A stretch of DNA of 62,891 nt from Thermoplasmatota archaeon (GCA_030601705.1 JAUWBM010000003.1:1-62891); one strand, 5' to 3'. Counted from the first letter of the stretch, positions 24,128 to 62,886 are shown. Numbers and translations: made by a program. Notes: generated from the sequence alone by a model not told the origin.

Positions 24128-24286
24128 ATGAATAAAACATGGAAAGACCAAAACACACCTGCACTTGCAATAGTCGCAAGAGGTGACCAAATTACTTCTA
24201 TTAACCCAAATTCATTTAGGGTTAAATCACAAAGCAATTTGGATAAAACGTATTTAGTTGAAAAACAGGGTTCTAAAGGTTTTTAA
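24128..24286 (+). pseudogene. Truncated N-terminus of a SWIM-finger-type transposase-like protein
   Basis: 52 aa containing FRVKSQSNLDKTYLV, ending before the expected CxC. Divergent from the DUF2080-like gene. Confidence 0.45.
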
Positions 24287-24331
24287 ACGTAGAGTTTGTT
24301 ACATAATCACTATTTGAGGGAGGCAAAGGAT

Positions 24332-25216
24332 ATGAAAAAACAATTAATACTACTCGGAATAATTGTTCTACTCTTGACTGTTGGGTTGAGTGGATGCACC
24401 GAAGTTCCTGTTAGTGGAAAATCACCTGCTAATATTAATCAATTTATGTCTGTTCAGGAGGGAGAATTAATTAGGTTTTACTTTTTACTTGAGGATAAGG
24501 ATGGAATTAACACAGTAAGTGATGGTAATGTTCGGATTGAGATATTTGATAATATAAATTCATCGCTTTATTATCAAGAGTTTAATGTTAAGGCATCAGA
24601 ATTCGTTGATTATGCTTTCAAAATTTCTGGAACTGGCATAGGAAAGGCATACGAGTGGAGAGTTCCAATAGAGGATATTGAAAAGGGAATTTCAATATTG
24701 GGTTTTGGTAAGGCAGTTCTTACATTTACTACTCCTGATGATAAAACTCTAAATGCCGAGGATACGCTTGTTCCGATACACAGTTACACGGAAGAAGAAC
24801 TTGAAAATATGTATGAAGCAGAATATGAGAATTCTTCAACTGCTGTAAATAAAAAAATAACCAAAGGCAACTTTGAAATAACAGTAAGTAAAGTTGGATA
24901 TTTTAATAATCGGTTATTTGGAGTAACAAATCAATATTTTAGAGTAGATATGGAAGTAAAGAATGTTGGAAGTGAAAGTGAATATTTCTTACCATCTGGA
25001 ATTGCAATTATAGATAGTCAAAGCATCCAATATGAATATACATATGGTGGAACTTTAGATATTCTATCAACAGTTTATCCAGATGTAACCAAAACAGGAT
25101 ACTTATTATTTGAAGGTGTCCCAAACACAGAAACATCATTAAGACTTCTATTTGAATTGGGTTATGACGAAAACTTCAATCCATACTTATTTGAATATGA
25201 TATAAATTTATTGTAG
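24332..25216 (+). CDS. Lipoprotein with DUF4352-like C-terminal domain
   Basis: VGLSGC lipobox, then V.VKNVG and KTGYLLFE. Confidence 0.7.
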   Translation: MKKQLILLGIIVLLLTVGLSGCTEVPVSGKSPANINQFMSVQEGELIRFYFLLEDKDGINTVSDGNVRIEIFDNINSSLYYQEFNVKASEFVDYAFKISGTGIGKAYEWRVPIEDIEKGISILGFGKAVLTFTTPDDKTLNAEDTLVPIHSYTEEELENMYEAEYENSSTAVNKKITKGNFEITVSKVGYFNNRLFGVTNQYFRVDMEVKNVGSESEYFLPSGIAIIDSQSIQYEYTYGGTLDILSTVYPDVTKTGYLLFEGVPNTETSLRLLFELGYDENFNPYLFEYDINLL

Positions 25217-25364
25217 ATTTGTAGGAGGCAAAGGTTGATTCACATTAAATGCATGACATGTGGTTGGCGTTTACCTTTTTCCAGCAAGAAAAATGAAGAT
25301 AATGTTAAGAACCGAGGAATCGGCAATATAGTATGTCCTAATTGTGGTAAAACATTGATTCAAA
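25210..25364 (+). repeat. ~155-bp direct repeat, copy 1
   Basis: Aligns with 27715-27868 (start module plus Zn-ribbon ORF). Confidence 0.9.
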
Positions 25365-25411
25365 GTAGTCCTTTAAACAAGTTCAAACTCAGTGAAATTC
25401 TTGAACTGTAA
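25235..25411 (+). CDS. Small Zn-ribbon protein (58 aa), not in the ORF track
   Basis: TTG start after GGAGG. MIHIKCMTCGWRLPF...CPNCGK. Paralog at 27739. Confidence 0.7.
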   Translation: MIHIKCMTCGWRLPFSSKKNEDNVKNRGIGNIVCPNCGKTLIQSSPLNKFKLSEILEL

Positions 25412-26695
25412 CAGTAAATTTGAAGCCACCAGTTCCATCAATCCCCTGTCCAAGTCATAATCACTGATATCACTTGTGGGAATCCCACGTCTGAGTTCAG
25501 CCAGTGGAAGTCTCTCCAATCTTGTCTCCCTTGATATGCGTTTGATATGCTTCAGAATCTTATTCGCATCAGTGGTCAGGTTGAATCTGGTGGGCATCTG
25601 GGTTAGTGGGTGATGTGATGTTCTCCCAGTCTCCTTGGCATCTTCAATGAAATCAAAGTACTCAGAGAAAATCCCTTCCACATCATGTTTCATGTGGGTG
25701 AAATCATCTTCAGTGATAGTCTGTTTGAAATGTAATCGTGCCCATGAATTTGCTAGTCTCAACAATCCTGTATTATCAAGTGGTAACTGCATATCTGACT
25801 TGCGTAACAGGGTCTCTCCAGTCCGCTGAACTATCTTAGCAAGTCTGACTTGTGTTGATTGTTCAATGTGTGGATGTATCAACATCGCACTCATTTCATA
25901 ATCAAACACATCTCTGTCAAGCCCCCATTGTCTCTTGGTATACTGAACATCTGGGATGATAACTGGAATCTGAGTGGGCATCATCAACCTTTCAACTTCA
26001 GGGCTGAGACTGAACAGGTAGTTGAATGACAACTCTTCAGAAATCATCCTTGTATATACCCTGTTAGCCGACTTGGCATCATCAGGTGTTCTGATGGGTT
26101 TGTACATATACGCCTTGTTTTGTTTGAGAAAATCACTAGGTAACAACCATCTCAGTGATGTATTCAAATGTACCAAATCACGTGTTGACCCCAGTGGAGC
26201 AAATGACTGTGCACCAATCCCACCAATCCCATAACTGGACTTGGGACATGACAACACATTGATAGCGATTTCTGTACTGAACAAGGGTGATTCTTCCCCA
26301 TGCCAGTTATCAGTGAGTCTGTGGAGAAATCCATCCAATTCAAGGTGGGGTTTTGGGAGTTCTTCAGGTTTCAATGGCTCATACCCATCAACAATGCAGA
26401 ATTCACCAGTGTAAGAACCATACGTTTTCCTTCTTGGTATTTTGATATTTCTTTCAATCTTTTCTACAAGTACTCGAATCAACCCTTCCTCGATAGGGAT
26501 ATGAACTTCATCGGGAATAAGATATGTATAAGGAGACATCGGATGATTACTAAATGGGTTTTTCTTTAATCGAAAAGACCTGCTGTCAATCCATTCAATC
26601 CAGCCTACATGGACATTTTCAGGTTTTAGTAAGTAAATTTCGAAGTTAGTCCATGGTCCCTTTTCTCTCTTATCTAAACGCAAGGTTCGTGGCAT
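25373..26695 (-). CDS. Degenerate MCM-like protein (lid and wHTH-like C-terminus, no Walker A seen)
   Basis: LLRLANSWARLHFKQTITEDD resembles the MCM lid motif. GGAGG RBS before 26695. Confidence 0.5.
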   Translation of the reverse strand: MPRTLRLDKREKGPWTNFEIYLLKPENVHVGWIEWIDSRSFRLKKNPFSNHPMSPYTYLIPDEVHIPIEEGLIRVLVEKIERNIKIPRRKTYGSYTGEFCIVDGYEPLKPEELPKPHLELDGFLHRLTDNWHGEESPLFSTEIAINVLSCPKSSYGIGGIGAQSFAPLGSTRDLVHLNTSLRWLLPSDFLKQNKAYMYKPIRTPDDAKSANRVYTRMISEELSFNYLFSLSPEVERLMMPTQIPVIIPDVQYTKRQWGLDRDVFDYEMSAMLIHPHIEQSTQVRLAKIVQRTGETLLRKSDMQLPLDNTGLLRLANSWARLHFKQTITEDDFTHMKHDVEGIFSEYFDFIEDAKETGRTSHHPLTQMPTRFNLTTDANKILKHIKRISRETRLERLPLAELRRGIPTSDISDYDLDRGLMELVASNLLLQFKNFTEFELV

Positions 26696-26934
26696 AGAAA
26701 CCAAACCTCCCATCCTATGTCTAAAAGTTAAATGAATATAAATGGCTTAAAGGTTTGTATCTCATCACCAGAATCTATCAATTTTCGAAAAAAGTTAGGA
26801 GTCTTGGAGGGATATGATAAGAGAAAGGATACGAATATGAATGACTATCTCTTGATTGTTTGAATTCATTTTTATCCTTCAAAACCAAAACAAAGAATTA
26901 TGGTAAACACGATTAGGGGTAACGTGGAACGCTT

Positions 26935-27696: not shown

Positions 27697-27714
27697 AGAA
27701 ATAAATGTTGTAAA

Positions 27715-27868
27715 ATTGTAAATTGGAGGAGGCAAAGGTTGATTCACATTAAATGCAAGACATGCGGTTGGCGTTTACCTTTTTCCAGTAAAGAAAATGA
27801 AGATGATGTTAAGAGACGAGGAGACGGCAAATTAATATGTCCTAGTTGTGGTAAAACATTGATTCAAA
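27715..27868 (+). repeat. ~155-bp direct repeat, copy 2
   Basis: Aligns with 25210-25364. Confidence 0.9.
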
Positions 27869-28250: not shown

Positions 28251-28300
28251 GTTTTTAAATAAGGAGAAGTTATTAAATTGTAGATTTGGAGGAGGAAAAA
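28251..28300 (+). promoter_or_regulatory. Full copy of the repeated start-associated module (TATA-like box, spacer, AAATTGTAGATTT, GGAGGAGG)
   Basis: GTTTTTAAATAAGGAGAAGTTATTAAATTGTAGATTTGGAGGAGG. Related copies are listed in the findings. Confidence 0.7.
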
Positions 28301-28301
28301 T

Positions 28302-29333
28302 ATGAAACCTGGACAAGCAAGAGGCTATTATTTTGAAAAACTTGTGAGAAAATTAATGCAGAAGACTAATTATATTCAAGTACAAACTGGAAAAGTCCTG
28401 GGAAGAGGAGCAAACCATAAAATAGACTCATATGGAATTTTTGCATTTACAATCCCATTTGTTTATCCAATTAGATTGATTGTGGAAGCTAAGTGGTATC
28501 AAAAAAAGAAAATAGGATTACCTAAAATAAGAGATTTTGTTGGTGTAATAAAAGATATTAGTGAGAATTATTTTGTTCCAGTAAACATTAGAGGTAAGAA
28601 AGCTGAAGGATTTTTATTGGACCGATTTACTGATTGTGGTGCATATTTTTCCGTTGGTCCTTATACTAGAGATGCCCAAGATTATGCATGGGCACAAGGA
28701 ATTTATTTAGTCACATTCAGTAATAATTCATTGATATTTCCAATAATAAAAAGGGTTAATGAACTAATTGAACAAGATATTTTTGATGATAATAAAAAAC
28801 AAAATATATCTATAAGTGACATAGGTAGAATATCAGATAGACATTTTGACAATGATGTAGAATTAAGAAATGCCATGAATAATATTTTTGCATACGTTGG
28901 AATATTGGATGGCATCTATCCAATAATAATTATTTCTGATGGAGATTTTCATTTTAACCCGATTAATCCGGATGATTTGAATATTGAAGAAGGGAATATA
29001 AGACGAGGTGCAGTTAAAGAATATCGTAAAGAAGACAAAGAAGGAGTTAATTTCAGATTTCATTATCGAAATATTAATTTTGAATTCGGTCTGCCAATTA
29101 ATACAGGAAATAATATTATTAAAGCAATACAAAGAACTTATAGTGGAGAAGCTTTTGCATATATTGATATACCAATTCAATTAAAGAGGGAAAACGAGAG
29201 TTATAGGAGAATTTTCAAATTGAATCTATCTCTTCCACGAAAAGAAAATATTTTAGATGAGATAAAAAATAGAGCAACTGAGATAAACTTTTTAAGTAAA
29301 GAAGAAAAGTACTCTCTTAACTTATCCTGTTGA
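28302..29333 (+). CDS. Mrr-like PD-(D/E)xK restriction endonuclease domain protein
   Basis: G..FE, ID, VEAKW, IRDFVG and YTRDAQDYA motifs. Confidence 0.75.
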   Translation: MKPGQARGYYFEKLVRKLMQKTNYIQVQTGKVLGRGANHKIDSYGIFAFTIPFVYPIRLIVEAKWYQKKKIGLPKIRDFVGVIKDISENYFVPVNIRGKKAEGFLLDRFTDCGAYFSVGPYTRDAQDYAWAQGIYLVTFSNNSLIFPIIKRVNELIEQDIFDDNKKQNISISDIGRISDRHFDNDVELRNAMNNIFAYVGILDGIYPIIIISDGDFHFNPINPDDLNIEEGNIRRGAVKEYRKEDKEGVNFRFHYRNINFEFGLPINTGNNIIKAIQRTYSGEAFAYIDIPIQLKRENESYRRIFKLNLSLPRKENILDEIKNRATEINFLSKEEKYSLNLSC

Positions 29334-29392: not shown

Positions 29393-29842
29393 TTATCCTC
29401 TTCGGATTAACAAAAAGAAAATAACACATACAACAATCCAAACTATGAACAAAGTTATACAACAGTTGGCACTTAATCCTAAAAAGAAATCGTCATCACT
29501 ATCTTCACTACTATCATTTATTTGTTCAGCAGGTATTTCTGTATCTGATACACGCCATTTTCCATTTTCTTTCTTTACATAACAACTTTCAGAAAATGAA
29601 CGAACATATTCCCAATCTCGGTATAGTTCTCCGCTAATGGTTACTCTCCATGCATCTTTACCATATTCATAAACAGATGTCTCTTGCTCCACTATCGCAA
29701 AGTGATACCAAAGTGAATCAATTTTCTCATTCAGGTACTCTTCGCCCTTGCTTTTAGCTGTTGCTTCATCACCTATGCAACCACTTAACACCGTTACAAG
29801 AAAGATTGATAATAATCCTACGAGTATAACTTGCTTTTTCAT
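29393..29842 (-). CDS. Lipoprotein with C-terminal TM helix
   Basis: VLSGC lipobox and a hydrophobic C-terminus. Confidence 0.65.
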   Translation of the reverse strand: MKKQVILVGLLSIFLVTVLSGCIGDEATAKSKGEEYLNEKIDSLWYHFAIVEQETSVYEYGKDAWRVTISGELYRDWEYVRSFSESCYVKKENGKWRVSDTEIPAEQINDSSEDSDDDFFLGLSANCCITLFIVWIVVCVIFFLLIRRG

Positions 29843-29995
29843 AACCTTGCCTCCCATAACCTAGGCTTCATAAAACATCTCCTTATTTAAAAAACTATCA
29901 ATTGATATCAGTAAAGATTATGATGTTACAGAAGCAGGAGAGATAAGAGCTGATTTACCTCTCCTCCCACATACATGTAACATCAGATGGTGCCT

Positions 29996-30596: not shown

Positions 30597-30627
30597 GTTA
30601 TGAAATTGTAGATTTGGAGGAGGAAAA
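30597..30627 (+). repeat. Start-associated module (consensus copy)
   Basis: GTTATGAAATTGTAGATTTGGAGGAGGAAAA directly before ATG. Confidence 0.8.
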
Positions 30628-31503
30628 ATGGAATATAAAAAGAGATTTTATGTAGTAATCATAGTGCTTATTGTTATTACTATATCATTTGGTAGTACAA
30701 CAGCTTACTTCTACAATGACAATATTAGATATAAAGGTAATTTAGAGGATTTAGAAGAGGACTATAGCACACTAATGAACAATTATGACAATTTAGATAA
30801 TCGCTATGATGAATTGAATGATGATTATTATAATCAAATAGATGGCTATAATGACTTATTGGATGATTATGAAGAAATTTATGAAGAATATACTAACCTA
30901 TATGCTCCATCGACTCTTATAAAAAATGGGACAGTTCATTGGAGATTTGAAAAGGTTGATGGAACAATCCCAGAATGGAATGTTGATATCGACACATATC
31001 TTTATTATGCTATGAAATCCGAACCCTTTGGATATAAGCATTTGCACAATACCAATACAGGGGAAGATTATACAGTAAAAGACCTTACCAAATATGTAGA
31101 TTCTAGTTTTTTCAAAAATGTAATTTCTACATTATCTAACGGAAAAACTGACAGGGAGTTTGTTAAAGAAGTTGTCCATCTTAAGAATCAGTTAATAACA
31201 TATGGCTCTGGACTTGGCGATAGTTATCTATATCCTGCTGAAACTCTTACAGAAGGCAGAGGTAAATGCGGAGATACATCAATTTTAATGGCAAGTCTTC
31301 TTTTGGCAGGTGAAGAGAAAGAAAACTATGGATTAGATGTATATTTTTGGTATTGTGATTCAAAACATATGACTAATCCACAAGAGGTAAATCATTGTAT
31401 AGTAGAAGTCGAGTATAATGATGGATATTTTGAACTAATTGAACCAACATCAGATACATTTTACACTTATGGAGAGATTGAAGGTTGGAAATTTGAGGTA
31501 TAG
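30628..31503 (+). CDS. Membrane-anchored coiled-coil and transglutaminase-like protein
   Basis: N-terminal TM, heptad repeats, G.CGDTSILMASLL, then H and E. Confidence 0.7.
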   Translation: MEYKKRFYVVIIVLIVITISFGSTTAYFYNDNIRYKGNLEDLEEDYSTLMNNYDNLDNRYDELNDDYYNQIDGYNDLLDDYEEIYEEYTNLYAPSTLIKNGTVHWRFEKVDGTIPEWNVDIDTYLYYAMKSEPFGYKHLHNTNTGEDYTVKDLTKYVDSSFFKNVISTLSNGKTDREFVKEVVHLKNQLITYGSGLGDSYLYPAETLTEGRGKCGDTSILMASLLLAGEEKENYGLDVYFWYCDSKHMTNPQEVNHCIVEVEYNDGYFELIEPTSDTFYTYGEIEGWKFEV

Positions 31504-31518
31504 AAGGGAGGAGATAAA

Positions 31519-32751: not shown

Positions 32752-32756
32752 GAGCT

Positions 32757-32788
32757 GATATGAAATTGTATTTTGGAGGAGGAAAAGG
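32757..32788 (+). repeat. Start-associated module
   Basis: GATATGAAATTGTATTTTGGAGGAGGAAAAGG followed by TTG. Confidence 0.75.
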
Positions 32789-35449
32789 TTGGAGAACTCG
32801 GTTTCAAAGAGTGACTTGATAGAGCTTATCAATGAAATTGAAAAATATAAGAAATTCAAATTAATCGGATATATTTTAACTCCTTTAATTATTGGTTTCT
32901 TTATTTTAAGACACTGTAATAGTAAGTTGGACAAACTTGAGAAAGAAATAAGAGTTGATATAGAAAAAGAATTAGAATCGATAAGAAGCAAATATAGAAA
33001 TGTTGTAATAGATGATACTTACCTTATATATTCAGTTAGAATTACTCTCATAGATTATTGTGATAATTGTATTGGATGGATATCTAAGATATTGTCTTAT
33101 AAAGATTGTTTTAGTTCTGAGTTAATTGAGTTAATTGAGGACTCAAAGAAAGAAGTTAGTGGGATAAGAGACAAGATAGATAACTTCAATAAAGAATTTG
33201 TCGAAAGAAGGAAATTAAAGTATGGTTATCTTCTAAAGACATCCAATTATCCTTTAGATGATAATCAGAAAACTGCAGTGATAACCGATGATAAATATAA
33301 TCTTGTTGTTGCTGGTGCTGGTTCAGGTAAAACAGAGGTATTAACCAATAGGATTGCTTATATTATTGAAAGAAAACCTGATACGGTTTCACCTGATAAA
33401 ATTCTTGCTTTGGCTTTTCAAAAAGATGCTAGAAGGGAAATGCAACAAAGATTAAAGGAAAGATGGGGTCATAATAATGTTAAGATTAAAACTTTCCATG
33501 CATTTGGATGGGGGCTGTTGGAAAGATATTACGGTAGCGAACCAAAATTGTTTGGAGGGGGAAATCATGAATTTGAAAGAAAAAAATTATTTAAAGAATT
33601 ATATGGCAATGAGTTAAAAAATTCGGAATTTCAAAATCTTGTTATAAATTATATGGGTTATATTGGTTCTGAAGAAAAGATATGGGTAGAAACAGATTTC
33701 AAAACAAAAGAAGAATTTTATAGTTATCAAAGTACTCTTAGGATAAAAACATTGAGTGGTTATGGAGTTAGAAGTGAAGCTGAACGAGATATAATGAATT
33801 TTTTCTTAACTCATAAGCTCAATGGTGAATACATCGATATTAAATATGAAATATCACCAGATGAGATGGACTATAAAGATGAGGGGGGTATCCTAAAACA
33901 TGTGTATCCAGATTTTTTATTTCCCAAGTATGATATTTATCTTGAGCATTGGGCAGTAGATGAAGATGATATATCGATTTTCGATGGATATGAAATTGGG
34001 ATGAATAAAAAGAAGCAATGGTTTGATGGACAAGATAAATATATTCTTATTGAGACAAGAGCATTTGAATATGGGGATAAATCTTGTTTCTTTAATAAAT
34101 TAGAAGAAAGATTTCTTGATGCATTAAAAAAGAGATGTCCTGATAAGCAGTTTGAATTCACCCTAATTGAATACGATGAATTGGTTACAAAAGTATGGAA
34201 GGATTGTAAGGCATATGTAGAAAAGATTCCCCTTCATATTTCAAATTTTGTTAAAATTGCGAAAGTTAATGACTTTTCTCCTGATGATATAAGGAAACGA
34301 TTAGATGATGAATCTTGGTTGCCGATTCAAAAAGCATTTGGCAAAATTGCTGTTAATATTTATGAAAAATACCAAAATGAACTGGCTAACAGAAACGAAA
34401 TTGATTATGAAGATATGATTAATGATGCTATTGAAATTTTAAAAACAAATAAAGAATTTTATAGAGATACTTTTGAACACATATTAATAGATGAATACCA
34501 AGATATAAGTGAACAGAGATATTACTTAATTAATGAGCTATTGAAAAAGAATGCCTCATGCAAATTATTTTGTGTTGGGGATGATTGGCAGTCTATCGCA
34601 GGTTTTTCTGGTTCTGATTTAAATTATTTTATTAATTTTCATGATTTCTTTAGGAATAATGCAAGGACAGATTTAACGGTAAATTATAGAAGCAATAAAT
34701 CTGTTGTAGAAACTGGTATAGAGATAATCAATCATAATTCAGATAAAATTGTTAAAGAAACGATTGCAAAAAATAATGAAGAAGGGAGAATACAGATATT
34801 TGTTTCAAACCATGAAAAGGAGGGCTTCTTGGGATACTATGAGGAAATTGCTCAAAACTGTCTTGATGATATTCAAGAGCTCATTAATAGTGAAAGTAAT
34901 AATCATAAACCAAATGATATAATGGTTCTTACTAGGATGTTATCTAATTCAAAACTCAAGGATATTTTATTAAAAAGAGCTGAAGAACGAAACATACCAC
35001 TTTACTGCCCCAGAGATACTAATAGATTATTTTCAAACAAGAACAAGATACCGTTAATGACTGTTCATGGAAGTAAAGGACTCGAAGCAAAAACTGTTTT
35101 TATTTTAGATGTTTGCAAAGGATTATACGGTTTACCTTGTGAACTTGAAGATTCTATAATTTTCAATGTTGCAAAAAACCATAGAATTGATGATAAAGAA
35201 TCAGAGGAAAGAAGATTATTTTATGTTGCTATAACTCGAGCGAAAAAGGATGTGATAATTTACACTCAAAAATCACAAGAAAGCAAATTTCTAAATGAAA
35301 TTAGTAAATATGTATCAAGGACAAGTATAGATGACAAGATAATTTCAACTTCTAATATTAAAAGAGAAAATAATGAGAATAATAAAATATTCAACTCAAA
35401 AAAGAGTGAAATAAAACAAAAATATAGCTTACATAAAAGAGTTAATTGA
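32789..35449 (+). CDS. UvrD/helicase IV-like SF1A helicase with an inserted nuclease-like domain
   Basis: AGAGSGKT, DEYQD, GDDWQSI, NYRS, HGSKGLE and RRLFYVAITRA motifs. The insert contains RSEAE...PDF...YLEHW. Confidence 0.85.
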   Translation: MENSVSKSDLIELINEIEKYKKFKLIGYILTPLIIGFFILRHCNSKLDKLEKEIRVDIEKELESIRSKYRNVVIDDTYLIYSVRITLIDYCDNCIGWISKILSYKDCFSSELIELIEDSKKEVSGIRDKIDNFNKEFVERRKLKYGYLLKTSNYPLDDNQKTAVITDDKYNLVVAGAGSGKTEVLTNRIAYIIERKPDTVSPDKILALAFQKDARREMQQRLKERWGHNNVKIKTFHAFGWGLLERYYGSEPKLFGGGNHEFERKKLFKELYGNELKNSEFQNLVINYMGYIGSEEKIWVETDFKTKEEFYSYQSTLRIKTLSGYGVRSEAERDIMNFFLTHKLNGEYIDIKYEISPDEMDYKDEGGILKHVYPDFLFPKYDIYLEHWAVDEDDISIFDGYEIGMNKKKQWFDGQDKYILIETRAFEYGDKSCFFNKLEERFLDALKKRCPDKQFEFTLIEYDELVTKVWKDCKAYVEKIPLHISNFVKIAKVNDFSPDDIRKRLDDESWLPIQKAFGKIAVNIYEKYQNELANRNEIDYEDMINDAIEILKTNKEFYRDTFEHILIDEYQDISEQRYYLINELLKKNASCKLFCVGDDWQSIAGFSGSDLNYFINFHDFFRNNARTDLTVNYRSNKSVVETGIEIINHNSDKIVKETIAKNNEEGRIQIFVSNHEKEGFLGYYEEIAQNCLDDIQELINSESNNHKPNDIMVLTRMLSNSKLKDILLKRAEERNIPLYCPRDTNRLFSNKNKIPLMTVHGSKGLEAKTVFILDVCKGLYGLPCELEDSIIFNVAKNHRIDDKESEERRLFYVAITRAKKDVIIYTQKSQESKFLNEISKYVSRTSIDDKIISTSNIKRENNENNKIFNSKKSEIKQKYSLHKRVN

Positions 35450-35678
35450 AATTCAAGAACCTGCAATTATTGTAACCAAGTCATTCCAAAAGAATTGGAA
35501 ACCTGTCCAAAATGTGGAAATAAATTATTACCGATTATTGAATGAGAATATAAAAGTAGCAATTATAAAACACATGGACATCCAATTGAAGGGCAGGTTT
35601 CTTATTGGGTATAATATCAGTGATACCAAAGGAAATGGAGAAGCAAAAAGAAAAATGAATAACCATCTCTTAAAAGTT

Positions 35679-35710
35679 GAAATGAAATTGTAGATTTGGA
35701 GGATGTGAAA
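35679..35710 (+). repeat. Start-associated module
   Basis: GAAATGAAATTGTAGATTTGGAGGATGTGAAA followed by ATG. Confidence 0.75.
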
Positions 35711-35938
35711 ATGTCTGATTATAATATTGAAATCAACAAGTTGGTGAAGGAGACGGAAAATGGCATTATTAAAACAGAGATTTGGGCTGAAATAACTGAC
35801 AAGGAAACTAATGAAACCATGAAAAATCGAATATGGTGGGAAGATGATGATGGTTATCATGATGGAGTACCAGATTTGCCAGTAGAGTTGCGGGGAGCTG
35901 TGGATAACGCTTGGATTGAAAAGAGTAGGAAATGGTAG
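35711..35938 (+). CDS. Hypothetical acidic protein
   Basis: ATG directly after the module RBS. Confidence 0.6.
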   Translation: MSDYNIEINKLVKETENGIIKTEIWAEITDKETNETMKNRIWWEDDDGYHDGVPDLPVELRGAVDNAWIEKSRKW

Positions 35939-42720: not shown

Positions 42721-45717
42721 ATGAACAAATCAATTTCCAATGAGCATTTTAATTCTCTACTTAACTATTATATTTCTTGTCTGGAAAAGGAGGATATGCT
42801 ATCATTAACTTTCAATTTAAAGTCTGATGGTAAAAAATTCCATTCAAATATCATAAAGAATGAAGAATTATTTCAAGCCAAAAAAGAACAAATACAAATA
42901 ACAAAATCTTTGAAAATTGAAAATTTCATTCAGAATTATAAACTTACTCAAAAGAATAAATCTATGTTCTATGGATATCCTCTATACATAGACTCAAATG
43001 GAGATGTAAGTCCAATTTTTTTCATAGAAATATTTCTCGAAGAAAAAGATAATAATATCATATTTACAAAAGAATCAGTTACCCCCGAATTTAACCATTA
43101 TATATTGAAGAAAAATGGTTTTCAAATTGAAGAAATTGAAAAAATCCAAATTGAATTAGAAGAAGAAGATAATATAATTATAAAATTAGAAAAGGTATTG
43201 GAATTACTACACCTTAAAAATGAAAATATTTCGCCCACATTACAAACATGTGAGTTAGAAATTAAACCATTTCAACATCTTGTAAATAAGGTTATGATAT
43301 ATTTTGGTGAGCGAACTGGTATTACTAAAGGTTTAATAAGAGAACTTCAAAAACTTAAAAAAATATCTTATCATCAAATCAAATCAAGCTCTTTGGGTCA
43401 TTTTTTAGATTATAATTCTGATTCAACAACTCAAACTATAGATAAACCTCTTTTAGAAATATTTGAAACGAATAACTCACAGGAGAAATCCGTATTAAAT
43501 GCTTTAGAAAAACCCATAACTGTTATTACTGGTCCGCCTGGAACAGGAAAATCCCAAGTGGTCCTCAATATCATTGCAAATGCTGTTTATAATGATAAGA
43601 CAATATTATTTTCAAGTAAGAACAATAGAGCTGTTGATGTTGTACTTGACAAACTTCATTCAATACTATCCCATGATTTAGTTATCAGAATGGGTACAAA
43701 GCGACATCGTAGGGAGGCAAAATTAAAAATTGAAAAATTGCTAAATGGGAAAGATTCCATAGAGCTACTGAAAGATAATGATAAAAAAATTGAACTCCTT
43801 AATGATATTAATCAAGAAATCAAATCAATTAATATGAATCTTGATTCAATGTCTGAACTGAATAATCGCATAGACAATTCACAAAATGAAATAGATACTC
43901 TTGCAAAGCAACTTCCATTGGACCTTTTTTTCCTTTGCAAGGAAGATAGTTATTCTCATATTGATAAATTCAGATTAGAAGGGGAAATAGAGGATGTTTT
44001 TGCTGATACTGAAGGTATTATCAGGAAAATATTGAAATTATTATTTCCAAGGAGATACATAAAGAAACAACAAAGACTTTTTAACGAATATTATGATAAA
44101 ATGCTGCCTCCTTTCAAGAAATATTTAGACAGAAACATCATTTCCGAAAAAGATGATTTTAAAAAAGCATTAGAATGGATTCTAACCTTTAAAATAATGG
44201 ATATTCTACAAGAGGATATAACATCAGCCAGTAAAGAATTAACTAAATCTCCCTCTATTTTTGACTTATTTGAAAAAGTTGCTGAATTGCATGAAAAAAG
44301 AGTGAAACTATCACGACCCTTATTTGAAGATTACTGGATTAGAAAAATAAAAGGAATAGATATTGAGAGACATAATAGTGTTTCAAGATATTTCGATGTT
44401 TCAGAAAAGTTAGAAAAATACGTTGAGCCTTATAACCTATGGAAACAATTAGATTCAAACCATAAGAAGGAAATGGATGAGATTTTATCATTCTTACCTG
44501 TTTGGGTTGTAACAAATCTGTCAGCAAAAAATAGTTTCCCACTGGAAAATAGATTATTTGATTTATTAGTTATTGATGAAGCTTCTCAATGCGATATCGC
44601 TTCTGCTCTCCCGTTACTGTATCGTGCAAAACATGTTGTAATAATTGGTGACCCAAAACAATTAAAACATATCTCTCTGATTAGAGAATCACAAGATAAA
44701 AGAATTGCCTCCTTTGAAAACGCTGATAATTTATTTTTAGATTTTTCATATTCAAAGAATTCACTATATGATTTAGCAGAACGGACAATAATAGATAGAA
44801 ATGAGCTACCAATTTTATTAAATGAACATTATCGGTCTCATCGAGATATAATCACATTTTCAAATGAATTTTTCTATGAGAATAAATTAAATATACAGAC
44901 AGATGAGAATAAACTGATATCAAATAAATATGTTAAAAAAAGAGTTAGCTGGATTGACGTTAAAGGTAAGACAATACGTTTTAAGAGTTCTTATTGTATG
45001 GAAGAAGCAGATGAAATTATAAATGTCCTGAAAAAACTTCAACGTTTAGATATGAATAATATTTCCATCGGCATTGTAACATTATTCAAAGCTCAAATGG
45101 ATTTGATTATAGAAAAAATAAAGAGACATAATCTATATGAAATTAATAATGGAGATATTACTGTTGGAACTACACATCGGTTTCAAGGTGATGAAAAAGA
45201 TATCATAATTTTTTCACCTGCTATCTCTGAAGGAATAAAACAGAAAACAATAAACTGGATACATTCAACAAATCAACTAATAAACGTTGCAATTACTAGG
45301 GCTAGAAGTGAATTGATAATAGTAGGAAATAAAAAAATATGTTCAGAGGCTGGAGGGATATTAAAAGAATTGGTAAATTATATTGACGCAAAAAAAGAAT
45401 CTGAAATTATTTTTGATTCCAACATTGAACAAAAATTCTATAATAGCTTAAAGATGAATAATATCAAAGTCATTCCTCAATATTGGACAAAAATTAAGGA
45501 TAAAAAAGCATATCGGCTGGATTTTGCATTGTTTGTTAATAGTAAAAAATTCGACATAGAAGTTGATGGTGATAAAGCCCATTCCTTGATAGTAGATTAT
45601 GATATTCTTAGAGATATACATTTGAGAATGGAAGGATGGAATATTAGAAGATTCGGAGCTAATAAAATTCAAAATCAACTAAATGAGGTTGTTGATGAAA
45701 TAAAAAGAATGTGTTAA
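42721..45717 (+). CDS. SF1 (Upf1/DNA2-like) helicase with a C-terminal DUF559/Vsr-like nuclease
   Basis: GPPGTGKS, IDEASQ, GDPKQL, HYRS, FQGDE and NVAITRA motifs, then RLDF...IEVDG..H...RD. Confidence 0.85.
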   Translation: MNKSISNEHFNSLLNYYISCLEKEDMLSLTFNLKSDGKKFHSNIIKNEELFQAKKEQIQITKSLKIENFIQNYKLTQKNKSMFYGYPLYIDSNGDVSPIFFIEIFLEEKDNNIIFTKESVTPEFNHYILKKNGFQIEEIEKIQIELEEEDNIIIKLEKVLELLHLKNENISPTLQTCELEIKPFQHLVNKVMIYFGERTGITKGLIRELQKLKKISYHQIKSSSLGHFLDYNSDSTTQTIDKPLLEIFETNNSQEKSVLNALEKPITVITGPPGTGKSQVVLNIIANAVYNDKTILFSSKNNRAVDVVLDKLHSILSHDLVIRMGTKRHRREAKLKIEKLLNGKDSIELLKDNDKKIELLNDINQEIKSINMNLDSMSELNNRIDNSQNEIDTLAKQLPLDLFFLCKEDSYSHIDKFRLEGEIEDVFADTEGIIRKILKLLFPRRYIKKQQRLFNEYYDKMLPPFKKYLDRNIISEKDDFKKALEWILTFKIMDILQEDITSASKELTKSPSIFDLFEKVAELHEKRVKLSRPLFEDYWIRKIKGIDIERHNSVSRYFDVSEKLEKYVEPYNLWKQLDSNHKKEMDEILSFLPVWVVTNLSAKNSFPLENRLFDLLVIDEASQCDIASALPLLYRAKHVVIIGDPKQLKHISLIRESQDKRIASFENADNLFLDFSYSKNSLYDLAERTIIDRNELPILLNEHYRSHRDIITFSNEFFYENKLNIQTDENKLISNKYVKKRVSWIDVKGKTIRFKSSYCMEEADEIINVLKKLQRLDMNNISIGIVTLFKAQMDLIIEKIKRHNLYEINNGDITVGTTHRFQGDEKDIIIFSPAISEGIKQKTINWIHSTNQLINVAITRARSELIIVGNKKICSEAGGILKELVNYIDAKKESEIIFDSNIEQKFYNSLKMNNIKVIPQYWTKIKDKKAYRLDFALFVNSKKFDIEVDGDKAHSLIVDYDILRDIHLRMEGWNIRRFGANKIQNQLNEVVDEIKRMC

Positions 45718-45733
45718 TTTTGGAGGAGGAAAA

Positions 45734-45937
45734 ATGGTCGAAAAGAAGGAAGACCCATGTCCTTTAAAAGTACCTGAGTGGGTACAATATCTTACGTTTG
45801 AACAAAACCGAGAAAGAGCCGATTATAATAATACAGAAGTATCTATCCTTACAAAAACAATCATAATGCTTGCGATAATAAATGCAATTCTGATTATTCT
45901 TACAATTCTTAATACACTCGATTTTGCGCTCTGTTGA
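45734..45937 (+). CDS. Small TM protein
   Basis: Preceded by TTTTGGAGGAGG. Its 3' end runs into repeat A. Confidence 0.55.
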   Translation: MVEKKEDPCPLKVPEWVQYLTFEQNRERADYNNTEVSILTKTIIMLAIINAILIILTILNTLDFALC

Positions 45938-51744: not shown

Positions 51745-51795
51745 ATACTTATGTTTCGATTAATTTAATATATGCATAACTATTTAGTATTTACA

Positions 51796-56412: not shown

Positions 56413-57319
56413 AAAAACGGCAGACCAGCTAATCAAAGAACATCTAAAGGACTGCGAGGCAAGGCTATCGCCACATACTGTGAGGAACCATAGAGTATGC
56501 CTGAAAGCCTTCACAAAATTCCTTGGCAAGAAAGCGATAACAGATGCGACGAAGAGTGACGTAAGAAGATTTTTGAACGATATGACACAGAGAGGTAGAG
56601 CCAAATCTACACTCATCGGCAAATTCTTCATAATATGCTCCTTTTTCAGATACGTTGAAGTGTATCAGGGTATATCTATGCCCTGTTTGGATGATATAGA
56701 TGTTAATGATTATACCAGAGGAACTTGGGAGGGGCAGAAGAGAGAAGCACTCACTAAGGGCGAAATAAGAGCCCTCATTGAAGCTCCAGATAATTTAAGA
56801 GATACTCTCTTAATCGCATTCCTGTATTTTGGTGGTTTCAGAGTTAACGAAGTCGCATTATTGAAAATTGAAAATGTAGACATAGAGAATAGAATCATTG
56901 GAGTAATAGGGAAAGGAAACAAACCAAGAAGGGTTCCATATTCCTCTAAACTAGACAGAGCGATTCATTTCTGGTTGCATAAAGAGAGAAGGAGCTACGT
57001 CAATTCTAACAGCCCCTATTTCTTCCCTTCTAAGCATGGAGAACACCTTAATCCAAAATCAATCAGCAACATGGTTCACAAGAATGCTGTAAAAGCAGGG
57101 ATACAAAAGGTGATAGGGAGAAAAGCTGATGGGATAAAAATATACAGAGTTCATCCTCATATTCTCCGTCACAGCTATGCGACCCATGCAGCAGACGATG
57201 AAATACCGATAACTCTCATTCAAAAGATGATGGGACATAGTCGTATAAGCACTACTATTGGATATATGGGAGAAACGAATGGTTTCAAATCATATTATGA
57301 AAAATTTAAAGGGGTATGA
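56396..57319 (+). CDS. XerA/XerC-like tyrosine recombinase
   Basis: SAM-like N-terminal domain, then GFRVNE, GKGNK, HILRH, MGH and TIGY (complete catalytic set). Confidence 0.9.
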   Translation: MEMQTKKTADQLIKEHLKDCEARLSPHTVRNHRVCLKAFTKFLGKKAITDATKSDVRRFLNDMTQRGRAKSTLIGKFFIICSFFRYVEVYQGISMPCLDDIDVNDYTRGTWEGQKREALTKGEIRALIEAPDNLRDTLLIAFLYFGGFRVNEVALLKIENVDIENRIIGVIGKGNKPRRVPYSSKLDRAIHFWLHKERRSYVNSNSPYFFPSKHGEHLNPKSISNMVHKNAVKAGIQKVIGRKADGIKIYRVHPHILRHSYATHAADDEIPITLIQKMMGHSRISTTIGYMGETNGFKSYYEKFKGV

Positions 57320-57348: not shown

Positions 57349-58140
57349 TCAAGAATTAAGATATCGTCTTAACCATTCTTCTTCGTCCTCAGGTACTTTT
57401 CTAAACAGCAATTTCTTTGCCAATTCAGTTTGGTAAAATACTCTCCTAGGATTACAATCGAACAACCTGCGACTGCTTTTTCCATATAGTTTTTCCATTG
57501 CCTTTTGTGCCAAAACTCCTGATTTAGCAATATATTTTTCTACAGTTCTCATATCTTCCCACCCGCCAAAAACCTGCAAAGCTTTTGAGGGGAGTCCGTC
57601 CCATGCAAGTTTGGTGGCGGCAGTTGCCCGAAGAGCATGAGGGTAGACATCTATTCCTGCTACTCTCCCGAGGTTTTTAATTCGAAGATTAACGTTCTTT
57701 GTAGTATATGGACATTTCGTATACTTTGACATTACTTCTTTCAAAACCCACTCGATTTCTTGGCTAAATCCAAAAGGAATGATTCTGGCACCGGCTTCGC
57801 TCTTTGGTTGCCAATATTCCTTCGATACTTCTTCCTTTGTGATATCCTTCAATACTTCTTCCTTTGTGACGTGTTTGCGTTTTTTTTTATTTTCAAATAG
57901 TTGTACACAATAGCTACAGGCACATGGTTCATAGGGAGGTATTACTATGATTTTTTTCTTAAAATCGACCCAGCGTTCTCGCATATGTGCTATTTCACCA
58001 CATCTTAACCCAAGTACGCCCATCACCAAAACTAGAAACATGTCCACTAACGGATTATTAGTCAACTCGCAGGCTTTCACCAATCGATTAAAATCTTCTT
58101 CACTAAGAGCATCATCCTTGGAATGCCTACCTTTCCTCAT
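57349..58140 (-). CDS. Catalytic-domain-only tyrosine recombinase with a CxCxxC insert
   Basis: GLRCGE, PKS, HALRA, GGW and EKY motifs, with CACSYC. Confidence 0.85.
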   Translation of the reverse strand: MRKGRHSKDDALSEEDFNRLVKACELTNNPLVDMFLVLVMGVLGLRCGEIAHMRERWVDFKKKIIVIPPYEPCACSYCVQLFENKKKRKHVTKEEVLKDITKEEVSKEYWQPKSEAGARIIPFGFSQEIEWVLKEVMSKYTKCPYTTKNVNLRIKNLGRVAGIDVYPHALRATAATKLAWDGLPSKALQVFGGWEDMRTVEKYIAKSGVLAQKAMEKLYGKSSRRLFDCNPRRVFYQTELAKKLLFRKVPEDEEEWLRRYLNS

Positions 58141-60014: not shown

Positions 60015-61250
60015 TTAATTTCTCATTTTTTCTAATTCTTGTATCTTTTCCTCCATCTCTTGTAGCTTTTTTAATAACATGTTTCCCATAGACCTTTCAA
60101 ATTCAGGAGTATTAAATATATTCATACCAAGTTTGATAGCTTGCTCCTTATATTGGTCATATTCCATAACGCTTTGCTCATCTAAACCCAGAGAACAGCC
60201 ACTACAGAACTTTGCAGCAGGGTCGTTCTTAATACCGCATCGTGGACATTTAATAGCTTTAAATTTGCTTTCTTTTTTCTCTTCATCCACTAGTCCATGT
60301 AGTTCGAGGATTGCTCTGTCTGTATCCCTTCCGCTTAAATGCACGTAAGTAGCAGCTTCCTGGCTCCCCTGAACCCAGCCCATATACTGGCATAGGTGTG
60401 CTTCGGTAAGTTTCTTTGCAAGTTCTGTAGCTCTACTGTGTCTAAAATGATGGGGATTGAGAGGCTTATCTATACCTGATTTTACCCCTAATTCTTTTAA
60501 CAACCGATTTACATGTCTATATTGTAGTTCTTCCCCCCTGTTTTTTGCCCATAGTCCGCAAAATAAGAAGGCGTCTTTATTTTTCCTTTTTGGATGTTCC
60601 AATAGCCAGTTACTTATGGACGGAGCAGATGCAATAACTCTTATTTTTCTTGCTCCAGTCTTACCAAAGAGGTTTATCAATGCCCCATATTTATCGAATT
60701 CAATGTCTTTAATCTTTAATTCTAACAATTCTCCAATCCGTGCTCCAGATTCATAGAGCAGTAAAGCAAGGCATCTATCCCTTAAATTGTTGGCGTAATC
60801 TGCTAATTTCTTGATGTCTTCTACGGTAAACAATTCGCTAGGTAATTTTTTTCTGGATTTTCTGACTTTAATTACAATCCATTTCACCTCATCAGGGTAC
60901 TGTCTTCTATCTAATTCTTGCCCTTCTTCCTCTCTTAACCATTTATAGAAGCGTTTAATGACGACCATATAATCATGTTTTGTCCACTCTTTAAAATCAG
61001 AGTTGTTGATTATGCTACATACCCTCCTGATGTCCTGTTTATTTGCCTTTGAAAAATCTTTTTCAAGCATCTGGGATAGCTTCTTGAGAGTATAGATATA
61101 TTTTATATGTCTGTGGTGTGTTAGCCCCTCAGCCACCAATTGCTCTATAAAGGAAAATATGTGTTCTTTGTTTGCTGGTAATATATCGGACTCGCTCAGT
61201 TTTTCTTTTGCAGTTAGAAATCTATTTTTCAAATTTTTCAAATTTACCAT
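60015..61250 (-). CDS. int: tRNA-targeting tyrosine integrase with a C-terminal Zn ribbon
   Basis: SGARIGE, GKTG, HHFRH, MGW, TYVHL and CPRC...CSGC motifs. Starts 65 bp from attR. Confidence 0.92.
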   Translation of the reverse strand: MVNLKNLKNRFLTAKEKLSESDILPANKEHIFSFIEQLVAEGLTHHRHIKYIYTLKKLSQMLEKDFSKANKQDIRRVCSIINNSDFKEWTKHDYMVVIKRFYKWLREEEGQELDRRQYPDEVKWIVIKVRKSRKKLPSELFTVEDIKKLADYANNLRDRCLALLLYESGARIGELLELKIKDIEFDKYGALINLFGKTGARKIRVIASAPSISNWLLEHPKRKNKDAFLFCGLWAKNRGEELQYRHVNRLLKELGVKSGIDKPLNPHHFRHSRATELAKKLTEAHLCQYMGWVQGSQEAATYVHLSGRDTDRAILELHGLVDEEKKESKFKAIKCPRCGIKNDPAAKFCSGCSLGLDEQSVMEYDQYKEQAIKLGMNIFNTPEFERSMGNMLLKKLQEMEEKIQELEKMRN

Positions 61251-61315: not shown

Positions 61316-61332
61316 AATCCCTTCGGCGGCTT
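61316..61332 (+). repeat. attR core
   Basis: AATCCCTTCGGCGGCTT, identical to 21986-22002. Confidence 0.92.
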
Positions 61333-61453: not shown

Positions 61454-61457
61454 TTTA

Positions 61458-62006
61458 CTAGTGTATAAGCCCTAGCGATGTTAGTTCTTTTGATAATTTA
61501 TCTACTGCAAGAGATACATCTGATATCTTTTTCGCACCAGTACATACTATTTTACCAGAGCCAAATAGCAGCATAGCCACCTTAGGTTCTCTTATCCTAT
61601 AGACCAGTCCTGGGAACTGCTCAGGTTCATATTCCACGTTTTCTAAACCAAGAGCCATAGCAACTTCATTAAGATTAAGCTCTCCACCTAGATCAGATAT
61701 TGCTACAATATTTTGTATTACTATTTCAGGATCCTTATGAACATCTACACCTAATTTTTTCAGCTTTTCTGCGATTATAGCTATAGTGGCTCTCACATCT
61801 TCGATATTTTTAGCACCGGTACAGTTGGCTTTTCCACTTCTAAAAAGAAGTGTCGCAGTCTTTGGATGTGCCAATCTGTAAACTAATCCGGGAAACTGTT
61901 CTGGTTCATATTCGGCTTCTTCTAGAGATTGTGCTATTACGTCTAAATCCAATTTTTCTGAAAAAGATGTAGATGCTACAATGTTTTCTACTTTTACTTC
62001 CGGCAT
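61458..62006 (-). CDS. tbp: TATA-box-binding protein (canonical)
   Basis: Two repeats of NIVA...YEPEQFPGLVYR...LF.SGK..CTGAK. Confidence 0.96.
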   Translation of the reverse strand: MPEVKVENIVASTSFSEKLDLDVIAQSLEEAEYEPEQFPGLVYRLAHPKTATLLFRSGKANCTGAKNIEDVRATIAIIAEKLKKLGVDVHKDPEIVIQNIVAISDLGGELNLNEVAMALGLENVEYEPEQFPGLVYRIREPKVAMLLFGSGKIVCTGAKKISDVSLAVDKLSKELTSLGLIH

Positions 62007-62022
62007 ATCTTTTTCATCCTTT

Positions 62023-62559
62023 CTATAATATTCCTAAAGACGAGAGTTTATCCGTCATTCTATCTATAGCGGTCGATATTTCTTCCGATTCTGTTCCGTT
62101 ACAAACAATTTTTCCCGAATCAAAAAGAAGTATAACTGCGTTTGGGTCATCCGGCTTATAAATCAACCCTGGGAAATGTTCAGGATCATATTCTACATTT
62201 TCTAATGAATTTGCAATTGAACGTAAATTAAGATTTTTTTTAATATCTGTTGACGCAACTATGTTCTGTATCTTTATATCTAATTGTTTATATGGCTTTA
62301 CTCCGACACCGTCTAATTTCTCACATATACTTTCTGTTAGTTCATGGGCGTCTTCCATAGTTTTTGGACCTGTAAAAACAACTTTTCCGTTGGAAAAAAG
62401 CATTGCAACAGTTTTAGGTTTTTCAGAATGTATAATAAGAGCTGGAACCTCTTCAGGGTTGTATCTGGAATCGGGGATGACTTCTGCTAACTTGCCGAGA
62501 TCCAACGATTTTGCAATCTGAGTAAAACCTACGACGTTCTCAATTTTTATATCTGCCAT
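62023..62559 (-). CDS. tbp: TATA-box-binding protein paralog (divergent)
   Basis: Two TBP repeats. The first reads YNPEEVPAL instead of YEPEQFPGL. Confidence 0.88.
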   Translation of the reverse strand: MADIKIENVVGFTQIAKSLDLGKLAEVIPDSRYNPEEVPALIIHSEKPKTVAMLFSNGKVVFTGPKTMEDAHELTESICEKLDGVGVKPYKQLDIKIQNIVASTDIKKNLNLRSIANSLENVEYDPEHFPGLIYKPDDPNAVILLFDSGKIVCNGTESEEISTAIDRMTDKLSSLGIL

Positions 62560-62640
62560 AAAAGGAATTTCCCTTCCTGAAGTATATAAAGACTTCTTAT
62601 AAAGATTACGATTTAAAAAACAGAAATCTTAACTCTTAAA

Positions 62641-62655
62641 TAATCCGCCGAAGGG
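62641..62655 (-). repeat. Inverted att-like copy
   Basis: Reverse complement CCCTTCGGCGGATTA matches 61319-61333 (CCCTTCGGCGGCTTA) at 14 of 15 positions. Confidence 0.55.
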
Positions 62656-62851
62656 TGCTATACTAAACGTATAGATTAGTACTCCTAAAACGATATATCA
62701 GACAAGACGAGATTTGAATACACTTTTACCGATAATAAGTTATTATCCAACCCTGTTAACCTAAAATGTAAAATTAAACCAAAGATATTTTGAGGTTTCT
62801 ACCATAATATCTCAAAATACATCAAACTAATAGATTATTAAAACAATAGCA

Positions 62852-62886
62852 GTTATGAAATTGTAGTTTGAGGGAGGAGAAAAACT
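62852..62886 (+). repeat. Start-associated module outside the island
   Basis: GTTATGAAATTGTAGTTTGAGGGAGG followed by ATG at 62887. Confidence 0.7.

Follow-up and report, generated by a model that had tools for sequence, protein, structure and literature searches.

The described systems closest to the sequence element reported here belong to phages, archaeal viruses and integrons. The PeSL (promoter early stem-loop) cassettes of T4-type phages (PMC2839356, PMC4122927) are, in the passages available, short conserved regulatory cassettes repeated before small, non-essential, mostly unknown genes in plastic regions; their copies bound insertions, deletions and replacements between relatives, and shuffling by homologous recombination from copy to copy has been proposed. 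For Cluster K mycobacteriophages, the available text describes start-associated sequences (SAS) and their extended form (ESAS), which have 13 bp, the consensus GGGATAGGAGCCC and no known function (PMC3203893). According to the accessible part of PMC11065993, Sulfolobales viruses carry virus-specific consensus regulatory sequences before early and anti-defence genes, and integrons, reported in archaeal metagenome-assembled genomes (MAGs) too, need IntI, a folded attC and one array promoter, as far as the consulted part of PMC9668308 goes. Here, we analysed a 62,891-nucleotide stretch of a Thermoplasmatota archaeon (GCA_030601705.1 JAUWBM010000003.1:1-62891), called the window in its whole length, in which one short module stands directly before the start codons of unrelated genes. 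Our favoured conclusion is that the module is probably an archaeal expression cassette of a Thermoplasmatota clade that doubles as a crossover seam, in the manner of PeSL cassettes.

The module shares with PeSL both the repetition before small genes in plastic regions and the bounding of units that differ between relatives. However, the PeSL of the passages seen combines a sigma-70 promoter with a terminator stem-loop in phage genomes, whereas the module is archaeal, has no stem-loop, occurs in the cellular chromosomes of a whole genus and also lies between co-directional genes; PeSL mini-circles were demonstrated physically, whereas the module is known here from sequence alone. Like SAS as described in the available text, the module is asymmetric, keeps one orientation, lies 3-7 bp before start codons, includes the Shine-Dalgarno (SD) core, has conserved positions unable to pair with 16S rRNA, precedes unrelated families, is restricted to a clade and sometimes holds the upstream stop codon. 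Sequence and host differ, however: no module matches were found in phage records, the module spans 31-55 nt of an archaeal chromosome, and the passages on SAS show neither a fixed-distance promoter element nor a role at mosaic junctions. The module is an analogue of SAS, not a member.

The Sulfolobales virus sequences are likewise archaeal, and in the part of that paper available a similar strong-promoter sequence precedes many small unrelated genes with a consensus that varies by lineage. There, the core of B recognition element and TATA box and the flanking operator are best conserved, whereas here it is the part downstream of the TATA box; their setting is viral genomes and ours is cellular genomes and an integrated island, and the word "recombination" is absent from the main text of PMC11065993. 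Rows of small, mutually unrelated genes on one strand, with every junction marked by a repeated site, also recall integrons as described in the part of PMC9668308 consulted. Unlike the 57-141-nt hairpin of attC type, however, the module is a 31-nt asymmetric junction without any C, each gene has its own copy, and module sites are not linked to integrase genes (6 of 36 sites within 15 kb of one in two relatives, G001 and G002). The absence of a hairpin-forming site and the separate module of each gene bear out the statement of an earlier note on this DNA that it is not a classical integron. The module belongs to none of the PeSL, SAS and Sulfolobales virus groups, because it has no terminator stem-loop, differs in sequence and host and is most conserved downstream of the TATA box. 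In a literature search of open-access full text, with subscription journals and supplementary files lying outside it, neither this sequence nor a comparable module turned up for Thermoplasmatota. The module extends a known kind of repeat, promoter or start-associated copies at the edges of mosaic units, to archaeal cellular genomes, genus-wide.

Sequence, anatomy and distribution of the module

The whole module comprises 30-55 nt and is nearly letter-perfect between copies. Its best-kept part of about 31 nt has the consensus GTTATGAAATTGTAGATTTGGAGGAGGAAAA, which is asymmetric and contains no C. This core followed by ATG occurs seven times in the window and about 51 times in the window's own genome (G000; 2.84 Mb, 194 contigs), with no occurrence in the reversed control. 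A 27-mer with up to three mismatches matched the window three times and the 21-mer core AAATTGTAGATTTGGAGGAGG four times, and 100 shuffles gave no match to either. In G000, 34 copies lay within two mismatches of the 21-mer, a position weight matrix (PWM) scan returned 50 matches of at least 12 bits (none in the reversed sequence), and nhmmer found 51 sites of at least 13 bits spread over 30 contigs. The hidden Markov model (HMM), built from genome-wide module copies, scored the seven window sites at 14.7-38.6 bits; direct reading, mismatch searches and the HMM all agreed with the earlier note in placing the module directly before the start codons at these seven sites.

Information content fell to background 6 nt before AAATTG and again at the start codon. 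Since 893 other SD-preceded starts conserved nothing upstream of the SD, the module is not the generic leader of this genome. Judged by eye, a start codon follows the SD within a few nucleotides at nearly every one of the 51 G000 sites, and at 40 of the 51 an open reading frame (ORF) of at least 25 amino acids (aa) begins at HMM offset 36-58, mostly 39-46. The terminal inverted repeats and target-site duplications of miniature inverted-repeat transposable elements or insertion sequences were looked for, and no repeats were found at the module edges.

The TATA-like box that had been noticed upstream of some copies is an archaeal TATA box, because the host is an archaeon. It stands at a fixed place in 46 of 111 copies, with its first T 26 nt from TTGTAG, and takes the form TTTTTAAA or TTTATAAA; the consensus of these 46 TATA-type copies is aaag.TTTTTAAA.aAa.AGAtGTTaTgAAATTGTAGATTTGGAGGAGGAAAAa. 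Archaeal TATA boxes are usually centred about 26-27 nt ahead of the transcript start. The 26-nt spacing fits an archaeal core promoter (24-30 nt), and TTGTAG offers TA and TG steps as candidates for the pyrimidine-purine initiator. Because the distance fits the usual spacing, transcription of TATA-type copies should begin at these TA or TG steps, and the predicted leader of about 20 nt, AGAUUUGGAGGAGGAAAAAUG, should be unstructured. The other 65 of 111 copies have no TATA box. In 61 of the 64 that could be tested, a same-strand ORF ends within -60 to +30 of the module, so the TATA-less copies are intercistronic; in six of them, the stop codon of the upstream ORF is the module's own TAG. The two halves of the module are linked yet separable: the 5' half accompanies TTGGAGGAGGAAAA at 30 of its 46 sites, and at several TATA-type sites it occurs with a different SD.

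An AGGAGG SD lies 4-6 nt ahead of the start codon. The 3' end of the 16S rRNA in this genus is ...GATCACCTCCT, with which AGGAGG alone can pair, leaving the 5' half of the module unpaired, and extended pairing with 16S rRNA was rejected. A candidate anti-SD pairing of AACCATCTC with GAGGAGG, suggested by reading the sequence, was considered and not used. Folds of 58-111 nt around three copies, computed with RNA parameters for the leader by itself and with its upstream context, were no stabler than shuffles (z-scores 0.15-1.06), and Rfam 15 at gathering score gave only two tRNAs in the window; structured RNA, an attC-like hairpin and a riboswitch were rejected on these results. We also observed a second conserved element, (C)TTTTTATCCTCC.C.AAAAC, about 15-30 nt upstream of the TATA box in a subset of module sites that includes Alba-like genes (G000 contigs C89, C69, C76, C129 and C176; loci L044, L045, L059 and L066; window 26870-26900), which may be a factor-binding site.

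The earlier note had tied the module to the island. PWM and HMM scans of G000 and 21-mer scans of the relatives instead found it genome-wide and genus-wide. The 21-mer was present in all six genomes of the genus, with 9-34 copies each (9-33 in the five other than G000). By contrast, among 35 genomes of other genera, families and orders, 33 had no copy and two had one, and reversed controls gave none anywhere. A 12-mer of the 5' half was dropped as a probe because its background was too high (128 matches vs 51 in the reversed control), and a 16-mer was used instead: it occurred in 7-38 copies within the genus, in 11 and 4 copies in two sister genera and in 0-2 copies elsewhere (controls 0-1). 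The sister-genus copies carry variants such as ...TAGATTTGAATGGAGG. The exact 21-mer was found in 23 stretches of a species-genome collection, 22 from Thermoplasmatota/Thermoplasmatales MAGs and one from Arcicella, and in 30 metagenome contigs, where small ORFs again stand behind it; the best-matching sequencing run for the window is a marine-sediment metagenome, and no RNA run was listed among the matching ones. There were no exact matches in IMG/VR. An origin from a plasmid or phage was rejected, as a megablast of 24000-46000 against plasmid and phage collections returned nothing.

Copies within one genome resemble each other in their variants. T(T/G)ATAG replaces TTGTAG in 6 of 10 G005 copies vs 5 of 102 in the other four genomes, and TAGATATGG occurs in 4 of 22 G002 copies vs none of 90 elsewhere. 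Because these variants are lineage-specific, they suggest that the copies of one genome drift together. Such concerted change would suit recombination that homogenises the copies as well as co-evolution with a factor recognising them. Three identical copies were seen in G001, around 1674900 and 1843900-1846400 (L039, L042).

The genes behind the module are unrelated. The 112 sites of five genomes precede 92 ORFs with a median of 75.5 aa, 57 of them of at most 100 aa and five above 300 aa; 54 downstream proteins aligned with a mean column identity of 5% and matched 27 different Pfam families, among them Response_reg, HNH, SHOCT, Macro, UvrD, Mrr_cat, DUF4268 and several Zn-ribbons. By eye, the G000 cargo includes four Alba-like paralogues, an Lrp-type regulator and a glyoxalase-like protein, and no translation or central-metabolism genes were seen behind the module in this set. 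The claim that the module does not precede housekeeping genes is only roughly true, because Alba paralogues carry it; the Lrp-type regulator, the glyoxalase-like protein and response regulators have it too. Overall, the genes behind the module are unrelated to one another, for the most part accessory, and often encode tiny Cys-rich or membrane proteins. Contigs such as C27, C9 and C91 hold arrays of genes of 36-75 aa, each with its own module copy.

Two further features of the cargo were observed. Some strong copies (G000 C47:7491-7560 and C27:3278-3400; L071, L093, L099 and L106) have no ATG, GTG or TTG start in range, and the sequence behind such copies is conserved between genomes (about 90% over 278 nt between C27 and L071); these stretches may encode RNAs that are not translated, or genes that begin at an uncommon codon. 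In addition, a family of about 40 aa (MKYQ.N.GKIC.V.GCNN.A..KGLC..CY...) regularly precedes a fixed extension, GAATAACCATCTCTTGATAG, which is joined to the module and kept as DNA, not as a reading frame (G000 C27:136-300, C9:243-420, C91:351-520 and C147:1700-1813; L045, L066 and L067; window 35650-35678).

Ends of sequence similarity at the module

The island at 24-44 kb of the window has no synteny within the genus; what it matches there is either single genes at scattered places or just the 50-66 nt of module and TATA box. We compared the 300-nt flanks, all against all, of 104 module sites from G000, G001, G002, part of G004, and G005. One hundred pairs were alike upstream and 64 downstream, and 12 were alike on both sides, of which 8 were overlapping neighbours, leaving 4. 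Between genomes, 63 pairs shared the upstream flank only, 32 the downstream flank only and one both. In the alignments, one side was 84-98% identical as far as the module, past which no similarity was left, and one gene may stand behind a TATA-type copy or an intercistronic copy.

Alignments of paralogous regions within G000 gave a controlled comparison. Of 112 alignments touching the module, 106 ended inside it and 6 ran through, whereas at 391 other GGAGG-N4-9-ATG starts, 198 alignments ended and 128 ran through (n = 326). A breakpoint was present at 31 of 51 module sites vs 62 of 391 control starts and a mean of 4.5 in 51 random intervals. The assembly points the same way: 8 of the 51 sites, including the one at the right end of the window, lie within 160 nt of a contig end (about 1 estimated by chance), and 33 of the 51 are on contigs shorter than 10 kb, which make up 20% of the genome. 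Contigs C56 and C91 have their first 141 bases in common, the length of the assembly overlaps in G000, and diverge from the G/A of TGTAG onward, inside the module; the gene behind the C91 copy recurs on C89 with a different 5' context.

Individual loci showed the same pattern. A 1620-nt match of 96.7% to contig C207 of G003, another species, begins at base 25210, within the ATTGTAG of a module, and the genes upstream of the match are unrelated between the window and that contig. The similarity of the NucS gene to three other loci stops at 27716-27722. Weak support came from sequencing runs: in run X3, from another study, 30605-32770 is present at about 99% without its neighbours, that is, as two transglutaminase-like genes between two modules, and on a contig of run X7, 323 unrelated bases give way to a match that begins at 32772 and reaches into the helicase gene. 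These run contigs were built from 31-letter words and break at the repeated module, and only coverage was counted, not end points. Module-to-module "joints" in them were not counted as excisions or circles, as their sides are 20-34 nt and arise from repeats. Together, the flank pairs, the paralogue alignments and the match to G003 agree with the proposal that the module marks junctions of differently combined gene units.

Module copies and neighbouring features in the window

Six module copies at 25-36 kb and one at the right end make up the seven window sites, all on the plus strand. The first, 25210..25237 (18.0 bits), comprises the 3' two-thirds of the module before the TTG start (25235) of a 58-aa Zn-ribbon gene, and its TAG is the stop codon of a DUF4352 lipoprotein ORF (24296-25216). 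The copy at 27707..27741 (14.7 bits) has a 1-nt deletion, sits just past the NucS stop (27696) and precedes the TTG start (27739) of a paralogous 52-aa Zn-ribbon gene. A full promoter-type module at 28252..28304 (37.1 bits, scored at 28269) stands before the Mrr-like nuclease gene 28302-29333; it consists, in order, of the TATA box TTTTTAAA, the spacer TAAGGAGAAG, TTATTAAATTGTAG, the leader ATTTGGAGGAGGAAAAAT and ATG, and has many 50-66-nt matches of about 90% identity throughout the genus. At 30597..30630, a perfect copy (38.6 bits) precedes the ATG (30628) of a transglutaminase-like gene, with the stop of a 121-aa Zn-ribbon ORF (ending at 30589) 7 bp ahead, and at 32757..32791, an TTGTATTTTGG variant (20.4 bits) precedes the TTG start (32789) of a UvrD-family helicase, with an upstream stop (32751) 5 bp ahead. 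The copy at 35679..35713 (27.6 bits) follows the extension AATAACCATCTCTT and precedes a small ORF starting at ATG 35711. The last, a variant TTTGAGGGAGGAGAAAAA (also read TTTGAGGGAGGAG) at 62852..62889 (14.7 bits; start 62887), lies 2 bases from the contig end and recurs before Alba on G000 contig C129.

The weaker copies proposed by the earlier note stood in part. At 45712..45736 (+), only the SD half, TTTTGGAGGAGGAAAAATG, is present (10.8 bits, partial), before a 67-aa ORF at 45734, and it provides the TAA stop (45717) of a 998-aa helicase. On the minus strand at 29843..29895, before the lipoprotein gene 29393-29857, we read a TATA box plus spacer, TTTTTAAATAAGGAGA, common to this site and 28252, with a degenerate core. 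Nothing was found by nhmmer at E<=10 at 24279, at 36158 or at this minus-strand site. The observation that the previous ORF either ends 5-7 bp ahead of the module (32751, 30589) or takes its stop codon from it (25216, 45717) holds, and the unrelated nature of the downstream genes was confirmed, with DUF4352 lipoproteins, NucS, the Mrr-like nuclease, the transglutaminase-like proteins and the UvrD- and DNA2-like helicases identified.

The last 17 nt of a tRNA-Thr(CGT) gene, AATCCCTTCGGCGGCTT (21986..22002, +), occur twice in direct orientation, and this left copy is a candidate att site of the island; the right copy (61316..61332, +) lies 66 bp from the start of an integrase gene (60015-61250, -). 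Because the tRNA end recurs beside the integrase start, 22002-61332 (about 39.3 kb) is, as far as its sequence tells, an element integrated into the tRNA-Thr gene. Inside it lie all six copies at 25-36 kb and the SD half at 45712, besides defence-like genes, a restriction pair and two recombinase genes further to that integrase. The proteins recognised in it include helicases of UvrD and DNA2-like type, the Mrr-like nuclease, a protein resembling NucS, an HD dGTPase-like one and a weak TIR match. Three Phage_integrase-family genes (56396-57319, 57349-58140 and 60015-61250) lie about 20 kb from the module copies. NucS, two genes for TATA-binding protein (TBP) and, by eye, RNase HII-like and UbiA-type ORFs give the window an archaeal signature, and a bacterial reading with an integrative and conjugative element and a -10 box was dropped on account of these archaeal genes.

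Several neighbouring features were also recorded. A complete-looking C-5 cytosine methylase gene (51772-52785) overlaps a HaeII-family restriction endonuclease gene (52778-53830), forming a Dcm/HaeII pair inside the element. The large ORFs 25373-26713 (-; 446 aa) and 49256-50374 (-; 372 aa) have no Pfam match at E<=0.01, and 54361-55452 (+; 363 aa) has none at E<=0.001; in G003, the 446-aa ORF and the Zn-ribbon gene occur together as one unit of 97% identity. The two TBP genes are arranged in tandem at the right end of the window (61458-62006, -, and 62023-62559, -). Domain matches to TBP and transcription factor B (TFB) are numerous in G000 and G004, where many of the genes occur as TBP-TFB pairs, and mostly number 2-6 in other relatives. 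In G000, several TBP-TFB sets adjoin an Alba-like gene (by eye) with a module variant. The sets are on contigs C147, C76, C129 and C79 of G000 and C15, C19, C30, C90 and C115 of G004, and may represent multi-copy, possibly mobile basal-transcription gene sets.

Proposed function of the module and competing explanations

We consider the module to be, more likely than not, both an expression cassette and a crossover seam. In this proposal, GTTATGAAATTGTAGATTTGGAGGAGGAAAA would comprise the promoter-proximal and initiator region and, after it, an unstructured leader that is short, has no C and carries the AGGAGG SD. At TATA-type copies (about 40%), transcription would begin in TTGTAG and yield a leader of about 20 nt; intercistronic copies, often overlapping the upstream stop, would serve at least as ribosome-binding junctions. 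Because dozens of near-identical copies stand at gene starts, the module would also be an exchange seam at which upstream and downstream gene units are swapped. The most likely mechanism would be homologous or short-homology recombination within the module, as proposed for PeSL in T4-type phages. What is observed directly is how many copies there are, their orientation and position, their distribution over the clade, the constant distance of the TATA box, and that similarity ends at the module. With its TATA box at a fixed distance (46/111), a 6-nt SD and a start codon, the module behaves as the portable promoter/leader that had been suggested. The sequence evidence for a seam is strong and controlled, whereas mechanism and expression are inferred: the transcript start, the strength of expression, and a module that would cause exchanges, not merely bound them.

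Several points weigh against this proposal. At the control starts, 61% of alignments also end, so the excess at the module is real but partly generic, and intergenic breakpoints are expected for any rearrangement that survives. A crossover inside the module cannot be placed, because all copies share the module, and units merely beginning with it would look alike. The 65 of 111 copies without a TATA box nevertheless keep the supposed initiator half, which a pure promoter does not explain, and the predicted transcript start and promoter activity lean on the usual archaeal TATA-to-start spacing. The sampling also has bounds: the relatives' sites were picked by 21-mer match, with orthologous sites carrying a decayed module outside the sample; no G003 sites and 14 G004 sites entered the pair analysis vs 33 listed for G004 under different criteria; the pairs are non-independent, and a few multi-copy families supply many of them; and the genomes are MAGs, in which assembly or binning errors are possible.

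The main rival is that the module is a regulon signal only, an operator or leader of co-regulated genes. A trans-acting factor peculiar to the clade would read it, for example a paralogue of TFB or TBP, a repressor acting where transcription starts or a protein that binds the leader RNA, and the mosaic pattern would be a by-product of fast accessory-gene turnover and not of recombination in the module. The conservation of about 27 consecutive positions, also in the 65 intergenic TATA-less copies, speaks for it, as does its ability to explain why intercistronic copies keep the 5' half; the lineage-specific consensus shifts fit co-evolution with a factor, and the available part of PMC11065993 offers a comparable archaeal precedent. 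TBP and TFB are, moreover, multiplied in the copy-richest genomes, with 13 and 16 domain matches (two per gene) in G000 and 18 and 26 in G004. This copy-number link is suggestive in these two genomes and fails in G001, which has only about two TBP and two TFB genes yet 15 module copies. The module also has no dyad symmetry, and no candidate factor was identified. Moreover, a regulon leaves unexplained both the excess of similarity ends in the module over other SD starts and the assembly-graph branches inside it. We regard a regulon signal without a seam as rather unlikely, although a regulon and a seam can hold together.

A dedicated cassette system, in which the module would be the site of a site-specific recombinase that moves single-gene units, integron-like but without attC, is improbable. 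Arrays of tiny genes with a module on each, unit boundaries that coincide with the module, three tyrosine recombinases in the window and six copies inside the tRNA-Thr-integrated element would all suit it. However, the few sites near integrase-family genes in the complete genomes G001 and G002 amount to about chance in G002; the module has no inverted repeats or hairpin and no C in 31 nt, and its fold z-scores are at or above zero; each unit has its own expression signal in place of one array promoter; and the copy-to-copy "joints", which might pass for excision products, stem from repeats. The role that had been given to the island's tyrosine recombinases thus finds no backing in linkage or in dyad symmetry, and the earlier note's interpretation as a whole is partly supported.

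Finally, control by a leader peptide, with the mini-ORF ATG-AAA-TTG-TAG or a longer MNNHLL...MKL form translated and regulatory, is scarcely credible and was rejected as incidental: a start codon is in register with the TAG in 66 of 112 copies and AAGGAG lies 5 nt ahead in some, but ATG is found in only 70 of 112 copies, so this 3-codon mini-ORF is not conserved; the other 42 have ACA, ACG, ATA, ATT or AGT there. In TATA-type copies, the ATG also comes before the point where transcription is predicted to begin, several copies shift the longer ORF out of frame or interrupt it with a stop, and the missing C at this place matches the C-free make-up of the whole module.

Beyond the combined expression cassette and seam that we favour, we tentatively put forward, as a possibility clearly short of even chances, a chromosome-wide, recombinase-independent cassette economy in this uncultured Thermoplasmatota clade. 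The module would then be an expression plug and homology patch for single genes within and between species, kept uniform and shifted by lineage through that recombination or through co-evolution with one of the multiplied TFB/TBP paralogues, and its cargo would be tiny Zn-ribbon and membrane proteins, defence genes, Alba and response regulators. If the reading as cassette and seam is right, archaeal cells would have their own equivalent of what PeSL and SAS are in phages, and it would explain the gain, loss and re-sorting of dozens of orphan small-protein genes and of defence genes in a sediment lineage without a dedicated integrase. For this group, the module may also serve as a tag for real small ORFs (33-100 aa) overlooked by gene callers, as a likely strong promoter and ribosome-binding site in organisms without genetic tools, and as a defined spot for structural variation in long-read metagenomes.

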